Of a stretch of DNA of 64,000 bases, positions 2,521 to 61,050 are shown piece after piece. The position numbers and the translations under genes are program-made. The notes under the pieces are model-generated. The model did no database searches and was not told the DNA's origin. It saw only the letters and a program-made list of their open reading frames with translations. Source of the stretch: Torpedo marmorata (lineage: Eukaryota); contig OZ360243.1 in NCBI GenBank assembly GCA_977017645.1, positions 48,856,001 through 48,920,000 on the forward strand, in the 5' to 3' direction. Numbering within the stretch: the first letter of the stretch is position 1; every line of letters begins with the position of its first letter.

Positions 2521-3169
2521 GTAAGTTGGTGAGAGGTAAAGCACTGAGGCTTTAGGTGGGGGACAGAAGGTTACAAAACACAACAGCCATTAAAGTTAAT
2601 GTGCACATCCTTGCCACTCTTGCAGTCAACCCCCGGAAAATGGTCACACTTCATTTTTCTGCAGTTAGCCGATATCTTAAGCTGAAGGAAGAAATCTGGT
2701 CCTCATCAAGAGAGCAGCAAGAGGGGCATGTACTGTCCAATACACTACTGGACAATGAATAAACGTTATTATTTCCTTGCTAAACTAGTGACACCAACTG
2801 GAAGTGAACAGTGTCCTACCAATGACCACGGGATTGGACGTAAGCTGTTATATGTGAACGGATAATCCATTTAAGGAATTAACCTGCACATTAACAAGTC
2901 TTGCAGTGCTAGGTCTTCCATTTCGAGCTGTTTCGAGTGATTTCCCACTACTGCCTGCAGCAGTTTACATGGGCTGCAATTGGATCAGAATTGGAAAAGT
3001 TCGTGTTTTAGATTGATCCTGGAATATAGGGATAGTTCCTCTATTTAGACAGAGAAATGTTGGAGAAAAAGGACAGATAGAGTTCTGCTAGCAAGTGGAG
3101 AAGAACCCAATCTTATTAAGATCATAATAATAGTCTACAAAATCAAAATGCAAAAGCTGGTTGACATCT

Positions 3170-3264
3170 CGAAGTAGAAACAGGAGATGCTGGAAATAGC
3201 AAATCAAACAGTTCCAATGCAGAAAGATAGAGTTAATGTTTCAAGTTGATAACCTCTCATCAGG
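3170..3264 (-). mobile_element. Penelope-like pLTR-derived fragment with degenerate hammerhead core
   Basis: Minus strand CTGATGAGAGGTTATCAACTTGAAACATT followed by ...TTTCCAGCATCTCCTG, matching the repeat family found at the end of the PLE at 6760-6845. Confidence 0.5.
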
Positions 3265-3859
3265 CTGCAGCACTCCTACTGTCCTTGTTGTTGCCTATTG
3301 TGTGTGTATGTACTGCAGAATGTTTCTCCTTACGGGGCACAGAGAATGATTCGTGTTGAATTGAAGCACAGGGGAATTCTACTCTGCTTCAAAATGAGAG
3401 AACTGAGGATCTGACTGAAGTACTATCGATTCCAAGGAACTTCTGAAAAGGAAAAGTTCAGCAGATCCTTTTTCCATCATCTGGCAGCTTTCTGTATTAC
3501 AATTGATTCTGGATCAGTAGAAAACTCCATCAAGCACTGAGCTAGGGAGTTGTCAGGGGGATGGGAGGATATGTGGGAGTAATAACATTTTCTGCCCAGA
3601 GTCAGACCTTCGGCTTGAAGCAGGATTATAAATGTGGTACAACTTCTTTCTCCGTGACATGATTGACTAACTCCACCCATGTGGAACTGTGGACTCTTTG
3701 AAATGATATATTAAGACTTTGTAAATTTGCAGACTAGATCCATTGATGGGAAACCAGCGATACAGATTTAAGATTATTGCAAACAGTCCAGAGGGAAATT
3801 AAGGAGGAAATTTGTAGCATCTGAGGAGGGAGAAATGTGTAACTATATTTTTGGATTAC

Positions 3860-4455
3860 ACTGTGTCGAAGGGTGGTGGGGATAATTCAATGCTTTTTTT
3901 TTTTTAACACCCCTCCCCCTTCCAATGCTTTTAAAAGTGCATTGCATAAAAGCCCCAGAAGGAAAAGTTTGGTAAGCTATGGGCAAGAATGGAAAATGAT
4001 TGGAGTCACGAAGGTTGTCTAAGGATACGGCTGGAGAGTTGGAATGATGGCAGATGGAATTTAATCAAGACAAATGTAAGATAATGCACTTTGGGAAGTC
4101 AAATTCTGATAGGACATATAGTGGGGACCTTCGAAGCATTGATGTACAGGGGAACCTGGAATGGAAGTCCATAGCCTACAACACAGGTAGATGGGGTAGT
4201 GAAGAAGACATTTGATTTGCTTACCTTCATAGGCTGAGGCATTGAGTATAAGAGTTTGTATGTCAAGTTGCACCTGTGCAAAGCATTAGATACACTGCAT
4301 TTGGATTACAACTTTTAAAAGGCATTAGGACAGGTACTTAAGTAGGAGAGGCATTGAGGGAAATGGTCCTACTGCATTCAAACAGATTAGTGTTGGTAGG
4401 CATCATAGTCAGCATGGATGAATGGTCTAAAATTGCTGTCCAATTCTATGATTCT
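3860..4455 (+). mobile_element. Old CR1 LINE fragments
   Basis: W-Q-M-E-F-N...K-C..H-F-G coding pattern at 4045-4100 and a CR1-like 3' end; boundaries approximate. Confidence 0.65.
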
Positions 4456-5759
4456 GAGCTGACACATCCTGGCATTCTGCGAATGTAAGAACAACTTGTC
4501 CCTATACACTTCCCTAAATGAATGTACTAATTAATAAGCGCGGAATTGGGAAGGAGGAGAAATAACAGAAACACTTACTGAAGGGAGAAAACACAGGCAT
4601 GGACACTTTAAAAGTAAAACTGAGAAGATTTCTGAGAACTGGTGGAATTCTAGTTCAACATAATAGGAACAAAATGACCTGTAGACAGAGGTTGGGGCCT
4701 CATGCACACAGAGTCAGAGATGGGGAACCAAATTGTGCAGAGATGGGGTAAGAAAGGGGCTGAAGTATTTAACGTTGAGGACAAGGAGTTAAAATTAAGT
4801 ATGATGTATGGAAGATCTAGGCAGTCTAAGTGATGGAACAGATCTAGAGCTTGAAACTTTGCACTATTTCACTGGGATATCTAGATTTTGTAAGGTTTAG
4901 TTCAACGTTGGGCAGGACAAAGTCAGCAAAGAAACAATCCTTGTGGTGAGGCTGCAAACATTGCTGTTAATGTTCTGGCTTTTTGTTATGACTAATGGGA
5001 GATTTGATGAGACAACTAATTTTGAGCACACAAAGGTGGTTGTATGATTGATAGGATTACAATAGGTATTCAGCCAATAAGCAGAAATTAAATTGCAGTA
5101 TAGGTGATAATTTACCATCTTGATGTTAAATAATTTGTTCTGATTACAGTGTAATGATGAAGGTCAATGAAAGCACTACAGTGTGGTTTAACAAATCTAT
5201 TTTTACCATTTGCATTCATGTTTTCAGCATTTAGCTGATAACGTGAACACTTCTACCTCACTTGGTTATACCCCTATACTGGTGGATTGTAGCATACTTC
5301 TCTGGGATACTTTGTTTCTCATGGGATGTGTGTGTTGAATCTATAGTTAATTTATCTATAGTGCTAGTATAATCAACTCTTAATATAATATAATCTTTCT
5401 GCATTTTACTATTCCCCTCAGTTGAAAGAGTTGAGTGATTATCCAACAGCTGAGCCACAATTTACAAGACGTTTAAATTGAAAGATACAGCACGGTAACA
5501 GACCCTTCCAGCCAATGTGCCCATGCTGCCAAAATAAACCCATGTGACCAATTAACCCAGCAACCCTGTACATCTTTGGAACTTCTATTCCTCTTTTCAG
5601 GTATCAGAGATCGCAAACTTTAATGATTCTTGAATTCCATCATCCTTCTGGATCTTCCACTGCTTTCCTATCTCTCTCCTTAGTCTTATCCATTGTCATT
5701 TTTTCACTATCCCTTTTGACCTGAACGATCAGTCATGAGTCAAAGCCTCAACTTCATCC

Positions 5760-6845
5760 TCTATATCCCTAACTCAATGAATTCTGCCACCTTCACTTTG
5801 CTACCAGTTTCCACCCTGCTCTCACTTTCACTTCCCCTGCCTTTCTCAACTTCTCAATTCCGGGGATTGATGAGTGACCAGTATCCCTTACAAGTCCATG
5901 GAATCCCACAACAATTTCAACTATGTCTCCTCAAACCCTGCTTCCCTGCAAGGAGTCCATTCCATTTTCAAGGCTTCTCCAGCTCAGTTGTATCTGTTCT
6001 GATGATGATGCTGCTTTCCTTGCCAATGCTTCTGAGACTTCTTCCTTTCTCCTCAACATGGTTTCCCTTCACTCACAATCAACGGTTGTCAACTGCTCCT
6101 GTTCGCTTACCAGTAGTTCTGCTCTTATCCTCAATTCTTCCAGGAGAGGGTTCCCTTTATTTTCAACTTTGTCCGGACCAGCCTCCATATTCAATGGATC
6201 ATCCTCTGTAATTTCTACTACCTTCAATACAATGCCATCACCAGATGCATTTACCCTCCCCTCTCCTTATAACATTCAGAAGGACATGTTCCCTCTGCAA
6301 AACTGGTTGACTCTTCCATTTCCACCAACCACTATTCTCTTTCTCAGTGCACCTTCCCATGCAACTTGCCCTTCTACCTTTTCCCTTTCCACCATCCAAG
6401 AACCCAAGTACTCCTTCCAGGTGCAAACTATAATCTAATTGTGCTGTTTTCAATTAAAAATTCTAAATTGGATGATCACAATTTTTATCTGCTCTATATT
6501 GGAAAAATAAATGCAGATTGAGTTATAGATTTGCAGAACACGGACATTCACTTGGTGAGGTGACACAATCGCCTTTCAATTTAATTCTCCATCTCATTCC
6601 CACTCTGCCATTAGCCTCTTCCATTGTTCAGTGAAGTTAAATGTAAATGTAAAGAACTGAATCTAAACTTCCAATGAGGCATATTTTGGCCCTCAGGACA
6701 TCACGCTAAACTTATCATTTCAGATAACTGTCCTTTCTATTTTGTGTCAGAAGTAGCCTGTTCTGATGAAAGATAATCTCTCCACAGACGCTGCCTGATC
6801 TGACGAGTATTTAATTTCTTTTATTTCAGATTTCCAGTAGCTGTA
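5760..6845 (+). mobile_element. Decayed Penelope-like retroelement (RT C-terminal region plus GIY-YIG endonuclease remnant and pLTR end)
   Basis: Peptide CKESIPFSRLLQLSCICSDDDAAFLANASETSSF resembles the PLE SIPYSQFLRLRRICS motif; 6490-6545 encodes LLYIG...RFAEH (GIY-YIG); frameshifted. Confidence 0.75.
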
Positions 6846-6950
6846 CCATTATGTATCTCACAGTTCCACATTTATTTTATTCTCTATTCTGTTTTCATTC
6901 TTTGCCTTGTATTTGCATTTCTTCCAGAAAGGTCAGCTGTGATTGACAAA

Positions 6951-7170
6951 GGAGGCACAGTTAGCGTAGCAGTTAGCACAACGCTGTTACAGCTCCAGCG
7001 ACGGGCTCGAATCTGGCGCTGTCTGTAAGGAGTTTGTATGTTCTCCCTGTGTCTGTGTGAGTTTTCTCCGGGTGCTCTGGTTTCCTCCCATCCTTCAAAA
7101 CATACCGAGGATGTACGTCAATTACCAAAAGGGCCTGATACTGTGCTGTACGTCTAAATTTAAATTTAAA
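6951..7170 (+). mobile_element. V-SINE/HE1-like SINE
   Basis: tRNA-like head, V-domain core GTCTGTAAGGAGTTTGTATGTTCTCCCTGTGTCTG...CCGGGTGCTCTGGTTTCCTCCCA, (TTTAAA)n tail. Confidence 0.8.
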
Positions 7171-8050
7171 GGCTCAGCTGGTACCACCACCAATTATATT
7201 AATCAATCTCTCTTTCTCAACTCTATTGTAGACATTTCCACTTCTCCCCTCTCTCTGCAACTTAAAACATGTTTAATTTCTGTCTTTCCCTCATTTTGAT
7301 GAAAAGTTGTCAACCTGAAATGTTGACTACTGTATTTCTTTCTCCATAGACACTGCTTGACTTACTTACTGAGTATTCCAGCATGTTCTGTTTTTATGAC
7401 AAGTTGAACTTTTGTTGGATGAAATTATTAATCTTTCTAAATCTTTGAAATTTTACTCCTCATTGACTTTTTGCTTTGGTAAATCTGCTTCTAAAGTTCT
7501 TCACCTGTTGTAACTGTCTGGCTTGTCTACAAACCTAATCTTACCAGAACCATCTTCAAAACTAATTTAGACTTTGGCAAAACCTGACTTAAATAGTTCT
7601 TACAGGATGGGATTATTAATAAAGAGCGTAGATAGTCAATTCTATCTCATGGGTGTTTTAGAGGTGTCATTTAGCTGGGGAGAAATGTGTCCAAGGCAAA
7701 TGATTACCTGATTGGTATTAAAACAACAATTAATGCTCCATTTCATATCAGGACATGGCTGTCAGTTGCCTCCCAGGCCTGTTTCTTGCTTGGTCCGACT
7801 CAGTTGCCAGACCCAGGGAGACTGAAAGGAGCCCTTCTGGAAGGTATAAGGGACTGTTGGAAAAGGATGACGTCCTTAATAAAAATGTTATGTGATTGTG
7901 AAAAAAGAAATGGGAAGGGCTGTGTTGCAGAAGCTATAAGGGGCGGCTAGGGAAGGAGAAAAACTCATTTCTAAAAAAGGGGCTGAATTTGCACAGAGCT
8001 TCAGGGTTTAAGCAGGGAAAGAAAAGGTCCCCTTTCCTTCTATTATGGAA

Positions 8051-29309: not shown

Positions 29310-29366
29310 GTAGGAGCACATCTGTCCCGTCCCTCTGCTAATGCACTCGGCTCTACTTGCCCCATG

Positions 29367-30325
29367 CACCGGGTGGTCCCCGGGCGCCCCTTGCTCCCCG
29401 AACCGGGGGGTCCCCGGGCGCCCCTTGCTCCCCGAACCGGGGGGTCCCCGCGCGCCGCTTGCTCCCCGAACCGGGGGGTCCCCGGGCGCCCCTTGCTCCC
29501 CGAACCGGGTGGTCCCCGGGCGCCGCTTGCTCCCCGAACCGGGTGGTCCCCGGGCGCCGCTTGCTCCCCGAACCGGGGGGTCCCCGCGCGCCGCTTGCTC
29601 CCCGAACCGGGGGGTCCCCGCGCGCCGCTTGCTCCCCGAACCGGGTGGTCCCCGGGCGCCGCTTGCTCCCCGAACCGGGGGGTCCCCGCGCGCCGCTTGC
29701 TCCCCGAACCGGGGGGTCCCCGGGCGCCGCTTGCTCCCCGAACCGGGGGGGTCCCCGCGCGCCGCTTGCTCCCCGAACCGGGGGGGTCCCCGCGCGCCGC
29801 TTGCTCCCCGAACCGGGGGGTCCCCGCGCGCCGCTTGCTCCCCGAACCGGGGGGTCCCCGCGCGCCGCTTGCTCCCCGAACCGGGGGGTCCCCGCGCGCC
29901 GCTTGCTCCCCGAACCGGGGGGTCCCCGCGCGCCGCTTGCTCCCCGAACCGGGGGGGTCCCCGGGCGCCGCTTGCTCCCCGAACCGGGGGGTCCCCGCGC
30001 GCCGCTTGCTCCCCGAACCGGGGGGTCCCCGCGCGCCGCTTGCTCCCCGAACCGGGGGGTCCCCGCGCGCCGCTTGCTCCCCGAACCGGGGGGTCCCCGC
30101 GCGCCGCTTGCTCCCCGAACCGGGGGGTCCCCGCGCGCCGCTTGCTCCCCGAACCGGGGGGTCCCCGCGCGCCGCTTGCTCCCCGAACCGGGGGGTCCCC
30201 GCGCGCCGCTTGCTCCCCGAACCGGGGGGTCCCCGGGCGCCGCTTGCTCCCCGAACCGGGGGGGGTCCCCGCGCGCCGCTTGCTCCCCGAACCGGGGGGT
30301 CCCCGCGCGCCGCTTGCTCCCCGAA
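29367..30325. repeat. 34-bp CpG-rich minisatellite, ~28 copies, at the start of flnc intron 1
   Basis: Unit TCCCCGCGCGCCGCTTGCTCCCCGAACCGGGGGG. Confidence 0.97.
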
Positions 30326-30711
30326 GTGTTAGCCGCGGGGCACTTCGTTGGGCGCTTGAATTCATTTCAGTTGAGTCGGTAGGAACCTCTCCAGCGGCTT
30401 AATGGTCTGTAACCAGGGACTGGCATCCAAGGTGATGAACAAGAGCCCACCGATTAAATGTACAGAGGGTTATTGTGATCTGGGACGGAGTTTGGAAGGA
30501 AGGACGGAGGGAGTAAATTTGGTTGTAACTTCAGGCAGAGAATGGGACCAATTTGTGGGGAGGACGTGGTGGAATCCATAGAGGAAAAAAGCAGCGAAAT
30601 GAGACCAACTGATTCTACTAAATAAGAGGGTCGATTGGCCGTTTTCTATGCTGGATCATTCTAGGAATTCTTCAATACATTCATTTGGAACCAATTTTGA
30701 TTTGTACAACA

Positions 30712-30864
30712 AAAGTAAATCACGAAAATCTGTAGACACCGTGGTTGAAGTAAAAAAAACACAAATGCTGGAGAAACTCAGCAGGTCAAACAGTGTCTTT
30801 TATGTAGCAAAGGTAGAAATACATAACTGACATTTCGGGCTTGAGCCCTTCATCAAAGTATGAG
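30712..30864 (-). mobile_element. Short Penelope-derived retroinsertion with hammerhead-like motif, 15-bp TSD
   Basis: TSD TTGATTTGTACAACA at 30697-30711 and 30865-30879; minus strand begins CTCATACTTTGATGAAGGGCTCAAGCCCGAAATGTCAGTTATG. Confidence 0.75.
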
Positions 30865-31221
30865 TTGATTTGTACAACATCTAGTGTCTCTGTAACATCT
30901 AGCACTTTTAAAAAAACTTAAACGAAGTGTTTCGGCAATGAGTGTGTGTGGTGAAGGGACCAGCAATTTGCACCATTGCCGTGAGCTATTGGTGGAGGAG
31001 CGGTGCTGTGAATCCATGCGCGTCTTTAGATACCACATCACTACTGGAAATGTGCATTTTCTGATCCGGAGAGGCTCTTTGGCCATGGGTTCTACCCAAG
31101 AGGCCATCATGTCCTTCTCCTTGGGGCATTTTTCTAATTGTTCTAAACACTTCTTTTGTTACTTGCCTACACTAAGGGGTAAAAACACAATGGAGGAGAA
31201 ACTCAGCAGGTCAAACAGTGT

Positions 31222-31326
31222 AAAAAGGTAAAGGTTCCATTATTGTCACGTAATACTACATTTAGAATGTAACATACATGAAATTCTTTAATTTTTGTCT
31301 ACCGTAAGGCAGACAGAGGGTCACTT
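31222..31326 (-). mobile_element. 5'-truncated tail of the 5S-SINE family, nested in a Penelope-derived fragment (31180-31375)
   Basis: Near-exact reverse complement of 44055-44165; it interrupts the CAAACAGTGT...TTATATATCAAAGATACATAACC continuity of the PLE-derived repeat. Confidence 0.75.
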
Positions 31327-33729
31327 TATATATCAAAGATACATAACCAACGTTTCAGGCTTGAGACCTCTAAAGGGTGTCACTTGCAGTGGCCAGTGAA
31401 CCGTGCAGGTGTCTTTGGGATGTGGGAGGTAATTGGAGTGCCAAGAGGAAACCCATGTGGTCTCAGAAAATGTGAAAGCTCTCCACAAATAGCTATCTCT
31501 GTCATCATCACTGAAGCAGATGATTGTCATTGATCACGTTGATATTGGGATCATGTTATACAATTTCCTACATTACAGTAAATCGGTTCTGTGGTGTAGC
31601 CACTATAAAGTGGTTAGGACATGGCAAGATGTGGAAGAGCCAGTCTTGATGCTTATAGGAATTTTGGGTAATAAAGGAAGATAATGACACAAGAGATCGC
31701 TTTATCTTCACAGTATCTTCAAGACTGAGACTGTCCTGGACCTTGGTGTCCTGTGGTTCAGTTGTGGCATCTGAATCTCGGGGTTGTGAGTTCATGTTTG
31801 AACATTGAGAGCAAAATCCTGAGCTGACACCTCAGTCGAGTTCTACATGATCAGAGCTTCTTTCTTTCTAATGAAACATTAAACAAAGTGTCTACCTGCT
31901 CTCTCACATCAAAATTCCTGTAGAACTATTTCAGGTTCCTTTATTATCATATACATGATGCTTAAAATTAGTTTACTTTTGTTTGCCTGTAAAGGCACAC
32001 AAAGATATTTTAAGAGAAAAAGACTATTCATCCCTTAATGAACAGCTCCAAAACAGATTGTTCTTGTCATTGCATTTAGAAGTGTGCTGTCATCTTTCCT
32101 AAACTATTTGTTGGATTTCCTTTGGCTATAATAAGGCTTTGGGATAACCTGAGACTGTAAAAGGTGCAATAGAAATGCAATCTTTCTTTGGCTACAGTTT
32201 GTCAAGGGATGCCAGACTGCTCACATCCTCGATATTCTATTTGACCGAGAGCTGAACTCCCAACTTCACATACTCTTCATTATCATCTGTCTCTTCCTCT
32301 GTATCATCCTCTGCCTCTACTCCTGCTTCTGAAACCTTTGGCAATATCAATGTTTGCATTTGAAGATTTAAATTCTCTTGTGACCAGTCTCTCATCTGCT
32401 ACTCTTAAAACATCAGGTTATCCCGGACTCTGCTCCCCACATTCAATTTGCAATGCCCCACTCTCGAATGTCCTCCCAGTATTCACTGACCCATCTCTGT
32501 AATATCAAACCACCTCCACAACTCTTTCTCCCAGAGATTCAAATTCCTCCATAGTCTCGTCTCTTCTGCGTCCCCCAGTTTCACCACATTCCCTCAGTCC
32601 TGTGCCTTCAGCTGCTGTCCTCAGCTTTGACATTCTTTCTCTGTGCTTCTCTACATTTCTCTTCAAAAGCTATCTCTTGGATCACATTTTTTTTTTTGTC
32701 ACCTGTTGCTTGATATCAATTTTCTGGCTGTTAACTGATCCTGAGAAATTTCTTGTGCAGCCTTGCTACATGGAAGATGCTTTAAAATACACATTGTTTG
32801 TTAAAGTACCAGGACTGGTGTGGAAATATCTTCTGCTTTTCTCCATGTTCTTGCTTTGCGATCATAGTAGCAGCTGATGTGTCTCAGAATTGAAGTGATG
32901 GAGAGTCTCTGGCATGAATGCTAATGTCTTGTGCTGATTGTGAAATGATTGTGTGAGCTTCTTGCAGTGTAATGAAGCAGTGCCTTGCAACAATCCACTT
33001 GATTTAGTCAGGCAGTATCTGTCAATAATCTCTTCTACATTACATAAGTGGAGATTTGGATGCTTTCATCTGTTAACCCACATCGTGTGGAAGAATGTAC
33101 AAATCCTGCTGCCTTTGTTTGAATGTGATCCTTGTATTTATTTTGTGGAAAATCGTTTTGGATCAAGATTTCGCTCCCTAAACTTTGAATACTGAGCAGA
33201 AAGGCTCCTAACCTTCAACATTTGTCTCCACTTATTTAATCTTGGTCAGGAGTTATAAATTGCCCCAGGGCCCTTGTACTAAAGATGGAAATAGAGGCGC
33301 AGCTGTCAGCTATTTGGCCCCTTGAGCTTGTTCATTCGTTCAAAGAAAAAAATCAGTCGGTCTCAGTCTTACAAGTTGCACCGTTGACCAATCGTCACAA
33401 GGCTCGGGAATAATTTGTTATTTTTCTTTCTACTTTTTCTTTACTATTTAACATTCATCCACCCCCAGCACCATGTCCAGTCAGGAAGTCATCCCCATTG
33501 GTAGTTCCCAGGCTTCAGCTGTCCGATCAGCTGCGGTTCTGTGGGTTGCCCTTCCAGAATATTCCCTGTGCATTTGCAAAGTCACGCCTGTCCTGAGTTG
33601 CTCTCCCCTTCCCCTCCCCCCCCCCCCACCCCCACCTCGGGCTGAGCTCAGGAGCTATATACAGCTGCTCAGGCTGCTGGCAGGAATGTGTCAGTGATAA
33701 CCTTGGAGTTTGACAGCTTGCGATGTCAC

Positions 33730-35469: not shown

Positions 35470-37480
35470 GACAAAGTGTTTTAAAAAGGAAACTGGAATA
35501 CAAGAGTAAGCTTGCAGGAATCATTTTTTTTTAAATGGCAGTAAAAGTCTCTCTGAATATTTAGTGATGTTGGTGAAGACAAATACAGTCGGAATTGGGA
35601 GAAGTTGTAATTGTGAGCAAAGAATTGGCAGAACAATTAAACATGTACTTTGATTTTTGTTTTTGCAAAGGACATGGATAACCTCCCAGACAGGTGAAGG
35701 AAGCAAGTGCCTAGTGAGAGGCAGAAATCTGAAGAAAACTTGCATGAGTATTAATTTACCTTGCATTAAAGTCTGACAGATTACAGGGCCCTGATAACCT
35801 AAACACAAAAGTACTAAAAGGAGTGACCTTGGAGATGGTGGCCATCTTCCAAAATATTCTGGAGCAGCTCCTGCATATTGGAGGCTGGCAATAGAACCCA
35901 ACATTTTTTTTCCTAAAAGATTGAATTGCAGACCAACGTTGACATGTGGAGAAAATGCTAGAATGTATTATTAATAAATGCAATAATGGAATACTTGAAA
36001 AGCATTAACAAGATTGGACAAAGTCAGCATGGGTTTAGGAAAGGGAAATTGTGCCTAACGAATTTATTGCCGTATTTTGAGAATGTAACTTGCTGATTAG
36101 ATAAGGAAGCTCCAGCGTGTTTGGTCTATTTAGGCTTTCGGTAGGTGTTTGATAAGGTTTCTGACACACAAGGATTGTGTATATATTTAAAGCACATCGA
36201 TTGAGGGCAATATTCTGGCAGGGTTTGAGAATTTTACAGACAGGAAATGGAGTAGGAATAACTTGTTTTCAGTGGGCGGGCAGGCAGTGACTATTGGGTT
36301 ACTACAGAATTGGTGTTTGGGCCATAGCTGCTCTTAATGTATTTCAATTACTTTAGATGTGGGGTGAAACACAAAAGTCTGCAGACTGTAGTGAAAAAAC
36401 AGAAATGCTAGAGGAACTCAGCAAGTCTCGCAGCGTCCATAGGAAGTAAAGATATGTAAACGACGTTTCGGGCCTGAGACCTTCTACCTTGAAGAATGGT
36501 TCAGGCCTGAAACATTGTTAGGCATCTTTACCTCCTATGGATGCTGTGAGACCTGCTGAGTTTGTCCAGTATTTCTGTGTTTTCACGACTTTAGATGTGG
36601 GAACCCGTTAAGTGATAGAGTTGTAAAGAACAGAAACGGGGCCTTCAGCTAACTGAGTCCACACCGTCCAGGTTCTCTCCCAAAACTAGTCCCACGTGCC
36701 TGCATTCAGCCCATATTCCTTTAAATCTCTCCTATCCACGTACCTCCAATGTGATTTTTGACAATTCAGGTGAGCTAGCAAATGCTTGGCAGAGGCAGTT
36801 TAACATGGATAGATGTGAGATTATCTCCTTTGGTTCTTAAAACATAGAAATGGAGATCATTTCCTGAATGGTGATTGGGGTAAGGGGAGGTTCACACAAA
36901 AGCTGAGTGTCCTTGTCCACCAGTTGCTGAAAGCAAGTGGCACAATGGGGCTCAGTGAGGATTTGAAGGCAAGGATGACCTGTTGCAGCTACATAGAGCC
37001 TTGGCGAGACCACATCTGGAGTTTTGTGTGAAGCTTTGGACTGGAAAGAATGTTCCTGCCATGCAGGGAGTTGACCAAATTTTTCTTAACTGATTCCTGG
37101 AATGGTAGTGCTGACTTGTGAGAAAAGATGAAGTTGATTAGACAAATGTTCATCAAAGTTTAAAACAAGGAAAGGAGATGTCCAAGAAACATAACATTCT
37201 GAGCCAGAGAGGCTGCAGAGAGGGTGTTCCTGAAGGCTGAAAATTGCTGAGCCAGGGGGCAGAGATCAGGATCTGGGTCACATCATTTAAAATGTCACCC
37301 AGAGGGTGGTGAACCTGTGGTAATCTCTGCCAGTGAAGGTGGTGGAGATGTGATCATTAAATATAATCAGGGAGTAAGTAGATGCATGTCTTAATGCTGA
37401 AGAGCTGTGGAGGGAGGGGAGGCAGTTGCTCAGGTTGGTGATCAGCCACGATCAGATTGTATGGCAGAGGGCCATGCTCG
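35470..37480 (+). mobile_element. Old CR1 LINE remnant, interrupted at 36364-36587
   Basis: Encodes SQHGFRKGKLCLTNLL at ~36022-36070; CR1-like 3' region CAGAGGGTGGTGAACCTGTGG. Confidence 0.75.
36364..36587. mobile_element. Palindromic (inverted) Penelope pLTR-derived insertion with 14-bp TSD
   Basis: TSD ACTTTAGATGTGGG at 36350-36363 and 36588-36601; arms ~36390-36485 and ~36489-36587 are imperfect reverse complements. Confidence 0.75.
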
Positions 37481-37639: not shown

Positions 37640-37778
37640 CCTGCTTCTGCTTATACCTGACGAAGGACTCAGGCCCGAAACGTTGGTTTACCCTTTACTT
37701 CCTATGGATGCTGCATGACCTGTGGACTTTCTCCATCACGTTTGTGCATTGCACTCGACCCAAGCATCTGAAGACTTG
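37640..37778 (+). mobile_element. Penelope pLTR-derived fragment with hammerhead core CTGACGA...GAAAC
   Basis: CCTGACGAAGGACTCAGGCCCGAAACGTTGG at 37656-37686 followed by CTATGGATGCTGCATGACCTG. Confidence 0.65.
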
Positions 37779-43950: not shown

Positions 43951-44166
43951 GTCTGATCTCTGGAGCTAAGCAGGCTCAGGACTGGTCAGTATTTGGAGGG
44001 GAGACCGCCAAGGAACACCAGGTGCTGTAGGTTTCTGTGAGGGGCACTGGACAAAGTAGCGACCCTCTGTCTGCCTTACGGTAGACAAAAATCAAAGAAT
44101 TTCATGTATGTTACATTCTAAATGTAGTATTACGTGACAATAATGGAACCTTTACCTTTTACCTTT
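43951..44166 (+). mobile_element. 5S rRNA-derived SINE (SINE3-type), 5'-truncated, inserted in a CR1 remnant
   Basis: 43951-44034 aligns with the 3' two-thirds of 5S rRNA (GTCTGATCTC..AGCTAAGCAGG..CTGGTCAGTA.TTGGA.GGGAGACCGCC..GGAA.ACC.GGTGCTGTAGG), followed by an unrelated tail ending GACAATAA...(ACCTTT)n. Confidence 0.85.
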
Positions 44167-45804: not shown

Positions 45805-45949
45805 GTAAGGACATGCCCTTCTGTGATACCCCCCAACCTTGTCCGCTAACTATCCCATCTCTTTCTCAACATGGGGAATGTGCTCCCCAGTATTTCTATG
45901 CTGTATCCATCTGGGGGCACCCTTTTTAACCTGGAATAAGTGATGGATT

Positions 45950-46200
45950 GCAGTAAAAACACACCAGAATGCTGGAGGAACTCAGCCAGTCTTGCAGCGT
46001 CTATAGGAGATGTATTGCTGACGTTTCGAGCCCTTCTTCAAGGAATAAGCAAAAAAAAACAGGAAATCTCAGAATAGAGACAGTGCTGGCTGGGGGAGGA
46101 GTCCAGACGAACAAAAGGTGTTAATTGGATATGATAAGGGGAGAGGTGAGAATTTGTCTGTGTGAAAGGAAACGGAAAAGGAGAGAGACAGAGCTGGGGT
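45950..46200 (-). mobile_element. Penelope pLTR-derived fragment
   Basis: GAATGCTGGAGGAACTCAGC...GACGTTTCGAGCCCTTCTTCAAGG, same family as 30712 and 36364. Confidence 0.6.
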
Positions 46201-46790: not shown

Positions 46791-47067
46791 GTAACTCTTT
46801 GATTATTCAAGATGGTTTACTCTGTCCAGAATGAGCTCTGCGTCCATCTTCATCTGTCTCATGATTATGCCCTGCCCTTGTGCACTGGCTGTCAATCAGT
46901 CCACTTGTAAGTTTTGGTCATGCATTGACTTGTAGGTCCAGCATTCCTGCCAAGCATTCCCTTCACAAGCAGCATAATGTTTAGGAGCTGCATGCCAATA
47001 GCATTTCCATGATGCAGGCTCATTGCCATAGGTTCAGCCTTCTGGAACAGTGAGGTACACCTTGGCT

Positions 47068-47179
47068 GTCGGTTATGTATTTCTACCTTTGCTACATAAA
47101 AGACACTGTTTGACCTGCTGAGTTTCTCCAGCATTTGTGTTTTTTACTTCAACCACAGTGTCTACAGATATTCGAGATT
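47068..47179 (+). mobile_element. Short Penelope-derived retroinsertion, 12-bp TSD
   Basis: TSD TACACCTTGGCT at 47056-47067 and 47180-47191; near-identical to 30715-30830 in the opposite orientation. Confidence 0.8.
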
Positions 47180-47530
47180 TACACCTTGGCTCTGCTCCCT
47201 TGCTTCCCATCCCCAATTAAAACCAATCAATCTGGACCTCTGAACCCAAAACTTGGAGCGGGGGAGGGAGTTTTTCCATATTTCCCCTGCCATTGTGTGA
47301 GGAAGTGGCTACTGATGGTCCTTCTGAAAAGGCCCAGTCTGGTTTTGGTGCCTTGTTCCCACCAAACCTGAGCAAGTAGTTTCTAAATACAGTAAAACCC
47401 CTGGTATCTGGCACCTATGGGGATTGGTAGATGCCGGTTAAGTGTATTTTCCGGTTGCTTGAGACTTACTCTTACAATGGCTAACTAATACACCTGCATT
47501 AAGATTAAATAGTTTAAAAGACAAAATTAC

Positions 47531-60839: not shown

Positions 60840-61050
60840 GCAAAAAAAAAAACAAACTGCTTGAGGAACTCGGCGGGTCAAGCAGCATCTGTGGGGTCGA
60901 AAGATTGGCCAGTGTTTCTGATTGAGACCTTGCATCGTAACCCGAATCATCATTCCCTTCCCTGCACAGATGTTCCCTGACTTGCCAAATTCCTCCAGCA
61001 GTTCGGTGGGTGTATGTGATCTTTTTTTTTGCTCCAGATTGCAGGTCTCC
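60840..61050. mobile_element. Older palindromic Penelope pLTR-derived repeat
   Basis: AACTGCTTGAGGAACTCGGCGGGTCAAGCAGCATCTGTG ... CACAGATGTTCCCTGACTTGCCAAATTCCTCCAGCAGTT form inverted arms. Confidence 0.55.

Follow-up and report, generated by a model that had tools for sequence, protein, structure and literature searches.

The window, a stretch of 64,000 nucleotides of the Torpedo marmorata genome (contig OZ360243.1, positions 48,856,001 to 48,920,000), contains a 153-bp insert that is enclosed by perfect 15-bp direct repeats and carries a hammerhead motif on its minus strand. Its features, of which the element itself probably derives from a Neptune-type Penelope-like element (PLE), are as follows.

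30697-30711, no strand: direct repeat copy (TSD), adjoining the 3' (tail) end of the insert
30712-30864, minus strand: probable 5'-truncated copy of a Neptune-type PLE, the final 153 nt of the element RNA
30713-30749, minus strand: PLE tail of ~37 nt, between the short and the long 3' ends of the family; the insert has the long end
30750-30864, minus strand: 3' part of the pLTR, a segment that precedes the ORF start in locus L061 and follows the ORF stop in locus L066
30822-30862, minus strand: minimal type I hammerhead motif, laid out as in the text and Fig. S3 of PMC4209133
30828-30829, minus strand: predicted scissile bond, 3' of the GUC triplet in hammerhead numbering
30865-30879, no strand: direct repeat copy (TSD), adjoining the insert's truncated 5' end

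The position of the scissile bond in the insert is the one we presume from hammerhead numbering. The base at 30712 may be untemplated. The 15-mer of the TSD occurs twice in the window, both times flanking the insert, and the chance of such a repeat is ~1e-6 for a 40x40 search area. The 15-bp TSD around a 153-bp insert given in the initial annotation is exact, and it does mark one insertion event, as was claimed there, but not the boundary of a family of short units. The left flank (30330-30711) matched only itself, so that no paralogous empty site was found, and the ORFs of the flanks are short and uninformative. About 370 bp to the left of the insert lies a GC-rich 34-bp minisatellite (29356-30325) that is open in most frames.

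The insert belongs to a very large family. Copies were counted across 6.2 Gb of genome by exact or degenerate sequence patterns, and the loci sampled for closer study are those that matched first, on the first contigs, rather than a random draw. A 34-nt stretch of the window has 2,456 exact matches in the genome, a degenerate pattern for the hammerhead core has 71,909 (the reversed control has none), and more than 100,000 motif matches appear when stem II is left free in the pattern. At all 30 of the loci L001-L030, the element extends past the right-hand boundary of the window copy. In long copies, the sequence equivalent to the insert is preceded by ~220 nt of 3' UTR and, before that, by an ORF with reverse transcriptase (RT) and GIY-YIG domains, on the same strand as the hammerhead. 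The insert is identical to the 3' end of one long copy (L065) at 146 of 150 aligned positions, and to that of a second (L066) at 109 of 111.

Locus L066 has a 971-codon frame without stops, which carries KPADKG, YIDD, CARRMCNTC and IYCIRCSLCGFLYIG, that is, the motifs DKG, YIDD, a CX4CxxC linker and IYC..C..YIG. The CARRMCNTC linker, at residue 839, fits the CX2-5CxxC pattern which, between RT and endonuclease (EN), marks Neptune or Nematis elements (10.1101/2021.04.23.441226). Pfam matches to the frame (RVT_1, E 6.6e-6; GIY-YIG, E 0.003) both lie below the curated cut-offs. The 3' end is thus contiguous in L066 with a single ORF for a PLE-type RT with a C-terminal GIY-YIG domain. Locus L061 is a partial tandem, another PLE trait, in which pLTR and tail stand upstream of an ATG-started frame (ATG at 2572); this frame stops after 83 codons, and the long ORF starts ~150 nt beyond the predicted cleavage site. 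In L061, two long PLE pieces also form a large inverted arrangement (2821-7675), where the N-terminal portion of the ORF includes a proline-rich repeat region.

The family also shows a tail, as defined in PMC11167929 and 10.1101/2021.04.23.441226, which gives it two fixed 3' ends; its copies are truncated at the 5' side to varying extents, include inversions and have TSDs of variable length, all as in EN-containing (EN+) PLEs. The most probable explanation, to which we give a probability of roughly 0.92 on sequence comparisons, is that the insert is the 5'-truncated 3' end of an abundant autonomous Neptune-type PLE, namely its last 153 nt, comprising the end of the pLTR and the tail. The clade assignment is by motifs, with a linker that is common to Nematis as well. 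That the insert is a PLE-derived retroinsertion had been proposed initially, and the TSD and the 146/150 identity to the end of a long copy bear this out. Comparison with ORF-linked PLE termini matched the insert to the 3' ends of L065 and L066, which contradict the notion that this end is absent from intact elements.

The ends of family copies were mapped from the first 100 matches to a sequence motif that lies downstream of the hammerhead, which gave 98 distinct contexts, some of them duplicated loci (L104/L117, L180/L182). Counted from the predicted scissile bond, 44 of the 98 have their 3' end at +69..+82 and 53 have it at +107..+118, with a single copy running on; 97 of the 98 sampled copies therefore end at one of two fixed sites ~37 nt apart. 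The 5' ends are scattered: 45/98 copies extend at least 300 nt, and 54/98 get as far as the ORF stop or past it. In a set of 60 loci, many copies have 5' inversions and TSDs of 9-17 bp. None of the 98 sampled copies has its 5' end at the predicted scissile bond (+1), and the nearest ends, at -2 and +3, lie at inversion or rearrangement junctions. Ribozyme cleavage as the process that sets the 5' ends was rejected on this count. There is a mild enrichment of 5' ends at -21..-35, where the insert ends (15/98 against 4.8 expected, in an interval chosen post hoc), of which ~11 remain once L104, which has an internal deletion, the paired arms in L109 and L121 and the seam common to L131 and L134 are taken out.

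Because of this enrichment, a preferred short source has to be kept in mind, and the 153-nt unit could in principle form a non-autonomous, retrozyme- or SINE-like family with a source copy of its own, mobilised in trans by the PLE protein. The clean TSD would suit such a unit, as would the seven flank-ending loci described below and the seam shared by L131 and L134. In rotifers, pLTR sequences are also reported to be enough for integration in trans (PMC3846280), and animal retrozymes have been proposed to derive from pLTRs (10.64898/2026.07.22.740005). The numbers speak strongly the other way. Among exact matches, 52,172 continue with family sequence past the 5' boundary of the insert, against 705 with a different next base. 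The first 30 of the latter comprise 15 continuing point mutants, 8 jumps to another piece of the element and 7 loci that end in flank at the same base as the insert. Scaled to 705, this amounts to ~165 copies stopping at the boundary, an undercount since flanks starting with A are missed, and copies that stop there make up well under 1%. The 7 flank-ending loci, moreover, have both long and short 3' ends. The insert is a single unit between its TSDs, not a tandem repeat with a hammerhead in each unit, and it spans the cleavage site instead of being bounded by two successive ones; nor does the family have fixed, ORF-independent boundaries common to many copies, as retrozymes would. We regard a non-autonomous family as very improbable. 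The initial annotation had posited such a family, and a unit beginning with the ribozyme; neither description holds, for in the 52,172 continuing copies the element runs on upstream, into the 3' UTR and the RT/GIY-YIG ORF.

Some rearranged copies deserve mention. L131 (437-689) and L134 (422-673) are head-to-head fold-back mini-insertions of ~250 bp, 98% alike and ~88 kb apart on one contig; they share the same non-element seam but have different flanks and different apparent TSDs, and a short derivative may have been recopied here. In L190 and L038, a piece of the 5' ORF region abuts the pLTR near -35..-45 without a change of orientation, probably as the result of a template jump.

The hammerhead motif reads, on the minus strand, CAUACU (30862-30857), UUGAUGA (30856-30850), an extra A, GGGC-UCAA-GCCC (30848-30837), GAAA, U, GUC (30831-30829) and AGUUAUG (30828-30822). 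Stem I has 6 bp with one bulge and stem II 4 bp with a UCAA loop, and the core consists of U3-U4-G5-A6-U7-G8-A9 plus the extra A, with U15.2, G16.2, U16.1 and C17. These letters agree base by base with those first noted for the motif, and its description as a minimal type I hammerhead (min-HHR) of the kind found in PLE pLTRs likewise stands: the type I layout, the extra base after A9, G10.1-C11.1, stem II, GAAA and an NUH triplet are all present, as in PMC4209133. The Rfam models gave no hammerhead at the gathering threshold in the window, where the lone nearby match is a chance SNORD47 (E 1.5). In a 50-nt monomer, stem II is predicted to form (p ~0.997) but the pairs of stem I only with p 0.015-0.02, and the hammerhead fold has -8.4 against -12.1 kcal/mol for the minimum free energy structure.

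The window copy has moreover decayed. The family consensus is GAAAC-GUC-GG, with C15.2 in 92 of the 100 matches listed, and the U15.2 and A1.1 of the insert (8/100 and 6/100 of those listed) are copy-specific changes of the CpG type. The palindromic 15.2-16.2 pair of the family is hence absent from the insert. Self-pairing of the helix III segment is at +1.2 kcal/mol in the insert against -3.1 for the ACGU form of the family; with ACGU lost by CpG decay, the predicted dimer helix is removed. Judged by its sequence, the motif in the insert probably has weak RNA cleavage or none.

The two flanks also occur in a related sample (X1), where they carry 9-10 substitutions over 290-390 bases (~3%). 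Its left-flank contig reaches 28 bases into the element. The right-flank contig has 22 loose letters matching family positions 30820-30841, with both CpGs intact, and these are joined to the TSD through one TGAG; the implied allele is 19 bp shorter and has no core box. As each junction is covered by one low-depth contig with fewer than 31 letters on the element side, this shorter allele is a hint only. It suggests an insertion older than the ~3% split, loss of the core box in the X1 orthologue and a lack of constraint on the motif at the window locus. Recent mobility, as first proposed, fits the family, but the window copy seems to be common to X1, with flanks ~3% apart.

The same junction bears on whether the insert is the remnant of a longer insertion after a later deletion, in which case its 5' end would say nothing of reverse transcription. 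The likely X1 orthologue is 19 bp shorter at just this junction, between two TGAG 4-mers, so the 5' end of the insert does get remodelled, and internal deletions occur in the family (L104). On the other hand, a full 15-bp TSD abuts the junction both in the window and in X1, and a deletion would need to have stopped exactly at the TSD. A later deletion is the least probable of the explanations weighed here, and truncation on insertion is preferred.

The family is unusual in the core of its hammerhead. The consensus CUGANGA calls for a Watson-Crick pair between positions 3 and 8, and here the pair is a wobble: U3 stands opposite G8 in 100 of the 100 core-pattern matches listed. With stem II left free in the pattern, 103,678 matches have U3 and 2,917 have C3, so that U3 makes up 97%. 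Copies with an older loop have U3 in 96 of the 100 matches listed. Thirty older copies were anchored outside the motif; 15 of them could be read by eye at position 3, with 12 U and 3 C. Since U3 predominates in older copies too, it is a trait of the lineage and not decay. A register with C3 and an extra U was rejected, as the dominant subfamily has no C there, and the alternative register is also excluded by older U3 and C3 copies, which align in one register. A rescue of U3 by A8 is absent from the 100 matches listed (0/100), and the few A8 copies look like CpG decay.

This core has a precedent. Text searches of the literature for a U3-G8 core did not supply it; it comes from the supplement of PMC4209133, where, in the part of file 2 concerned, one PLE-linked row from Saccoglossus out of 44 has U3-G8 and two rows have U3-A8. 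The U3-A8 combination is listed as a natural covariation (PMC3088659). In a type III ribozyme, changes to the CUGA turn lower activity except for a G:C swap (PMC9901934). On its sequence, the family motif is likely a dimer-dependent min-HHR with a U3-G8 wobble core.

Among 90 loci of the C3 type, the three free pairs of stem II are kept in 80, 78 and 82; five loci show an A-U swap at 10.2, and 2.2-1.2 of stem I switches between U-A and C-G. The pair G10.1-C11.1 gives no covariation support, because it was fixed in the search pattern. Double changes among 44 haplotypes, compared with the numbers expected under independence, are 4 vs 2.3, 0 vs 1.4 and 4 vs 2.9. The pairs of stem II are thus largely kept, but compensatory changes barely exceed independence.

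The family motif may be an active ribozyme that can do with U3-G8 when its fold is brought about by two copies or by the ORF protein; cleavage would then process the element RNA, which is compatible with truncation as the origin of the insert. Stem II, GAAAC-GU and the layout are kept across older subfamilies, an Anolis PLE hammerhead cleaves only with protein (PMC11167929), and a U3-G8 motif is listed for the Saccoglossus PLE (PMC4209133 supplement). Set against this are the count of 0/98 copies starting at the cleavage site, the near-independence of compensatory changes, the low activity of single CUGA-turn changes in the type III ribozyme (PMC9901934) and the loss of the ACGU palindrome in the window copy. 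On balance, we consider an active ribozyme possible but doubtful. Equally tentative is a second proposal, that a succession of Neptune subfamilies amplified with a cleavage-dead U3-G8 core while keeping the fold, the hammerhead being selected as a structure and not as a catalyst. If so, it might have a structural role, for example in binding protein or in making the RT pause, with 5' truncation biased as well towards its upstream edge, and the family would be a natural test of the need of Penelope elements for self-cleavage.

The metazoan min-HHRs of PLEs (Cervera and De la Pena 2014, PMC4209133) are likewise of type I with an extra base between A9 and G10.1, have G10.1-C11.1 and a palindromic C15.2-G16.2 without helix III, and occur mostly as dispersed single truncated copies. 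Within that set, the Neptune motif of Acropora digitifera shares the 4-bp GGGC stem II and CGUC, and the Saccoglossus kowalevskii(1) motif shares U3 with G8. The differences are these: U3-G8 in 97% of matches here against 1 of 44 rows in part of the Fig. S3 text of PMC4209133, and more than 100,000 matches against 4,000-9,000 copies in coelacanth and Xenopus. A text search of supplement file 2 of that paper found no entry for shark or Callorhinchus.

[quoted passage not shown] The Poseidon element PAc of Anolis carolinensis (Frangieh et al. 2024, PMC11167929) also has two fixed 3' ends downstream of its hammerhead, an AT-rich target and no sign of products starting at the cleavage site. It differs in having C3-G8 and an ORF that begins inside the hammerhead, where the present family has U3-G8 and, in L061, a long ORF that starts ~150 nt beyond the cleavage site. 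Animal non-LTR retrozymes (PMC7229834; 10.64898/2026.07.22.740005) are similar in being short, non-coding and pLTR-related, with a type I hammerhead and a long TSD, but form tandem repeats with canonical motifs and circular RNAs; the insert, in contrast, is a single unit, and its family is contiguous with an ORF in over half of the sampled copies.

The likely course of events can be drawn by analogy with PAc, from which the steps are inferred, and not from the present family. The GIY-YIG endonuclease of the element would nick AT-rich DNA, and reverse transcription would start at the downstream one of the two fixed internal sites, the tail site. In PAc, the tail is delimited by two internal sites at which the RT starts, and insertion in vitro can do without cleavage (PMC11167929). 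cDNA synthesis would then abort 36 nt upstream of the scissile bond, just after the hammerhead had been copied, and a staggered second nick would give the 15-bp TSD. Uncleaved RNA is the likely template, given that the cleavage site lies within the copy. The motif in the insert would be a neutral passenger, further decayed at two CpGs. Dispersed single min-HHRs are attributed to truncated PLEs, and minimal PLE hammerheads are reported to have low activity even as dimers (PMC4209133).

The window locus is ordinary, one of ~70,000 truncated ends, and dispersed truncated PLE ends with a single motif are of a kind described in 2014 (PMC4209133). Interest lies at the level of the family, a very successful PLE lineage in which a wobble replaces the C3-G8 pair. 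Whether PLE hammerheads need to cleave is left open by PMC4209133 and PMC11167929, and a U3-G8 family with C3 relatives in one genome offers a matched natural pair for this question.

Other copies and repeats lie nearby. A BLAST search within the window gave a 95% copy (47067-47182) and about ten older relatives of the insert. The 95% copy is a second young one, with an 11-bp TSD (47057-47191 in all), and it begins at the GUC triplet; starting 3-4 nt upstream of the predicted scissile bond, it has no other part of the hammerhead. An older pLTR fragment (31181-31369) is broken by 103 bp of inserted sequence (31223-31325), which shares 98% identity with 44058-44160 and also follows a truncated copy in L026; it resembles the 3' terminus of a different retroelement. 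Older PLE subfamilies are represented by inverted pLTR pairs at 36394-36583 and 60843-61003, and there are further old fragments near 7290-7395, 35375, 37658-37746 (with a C3 core) and 45948-46049.
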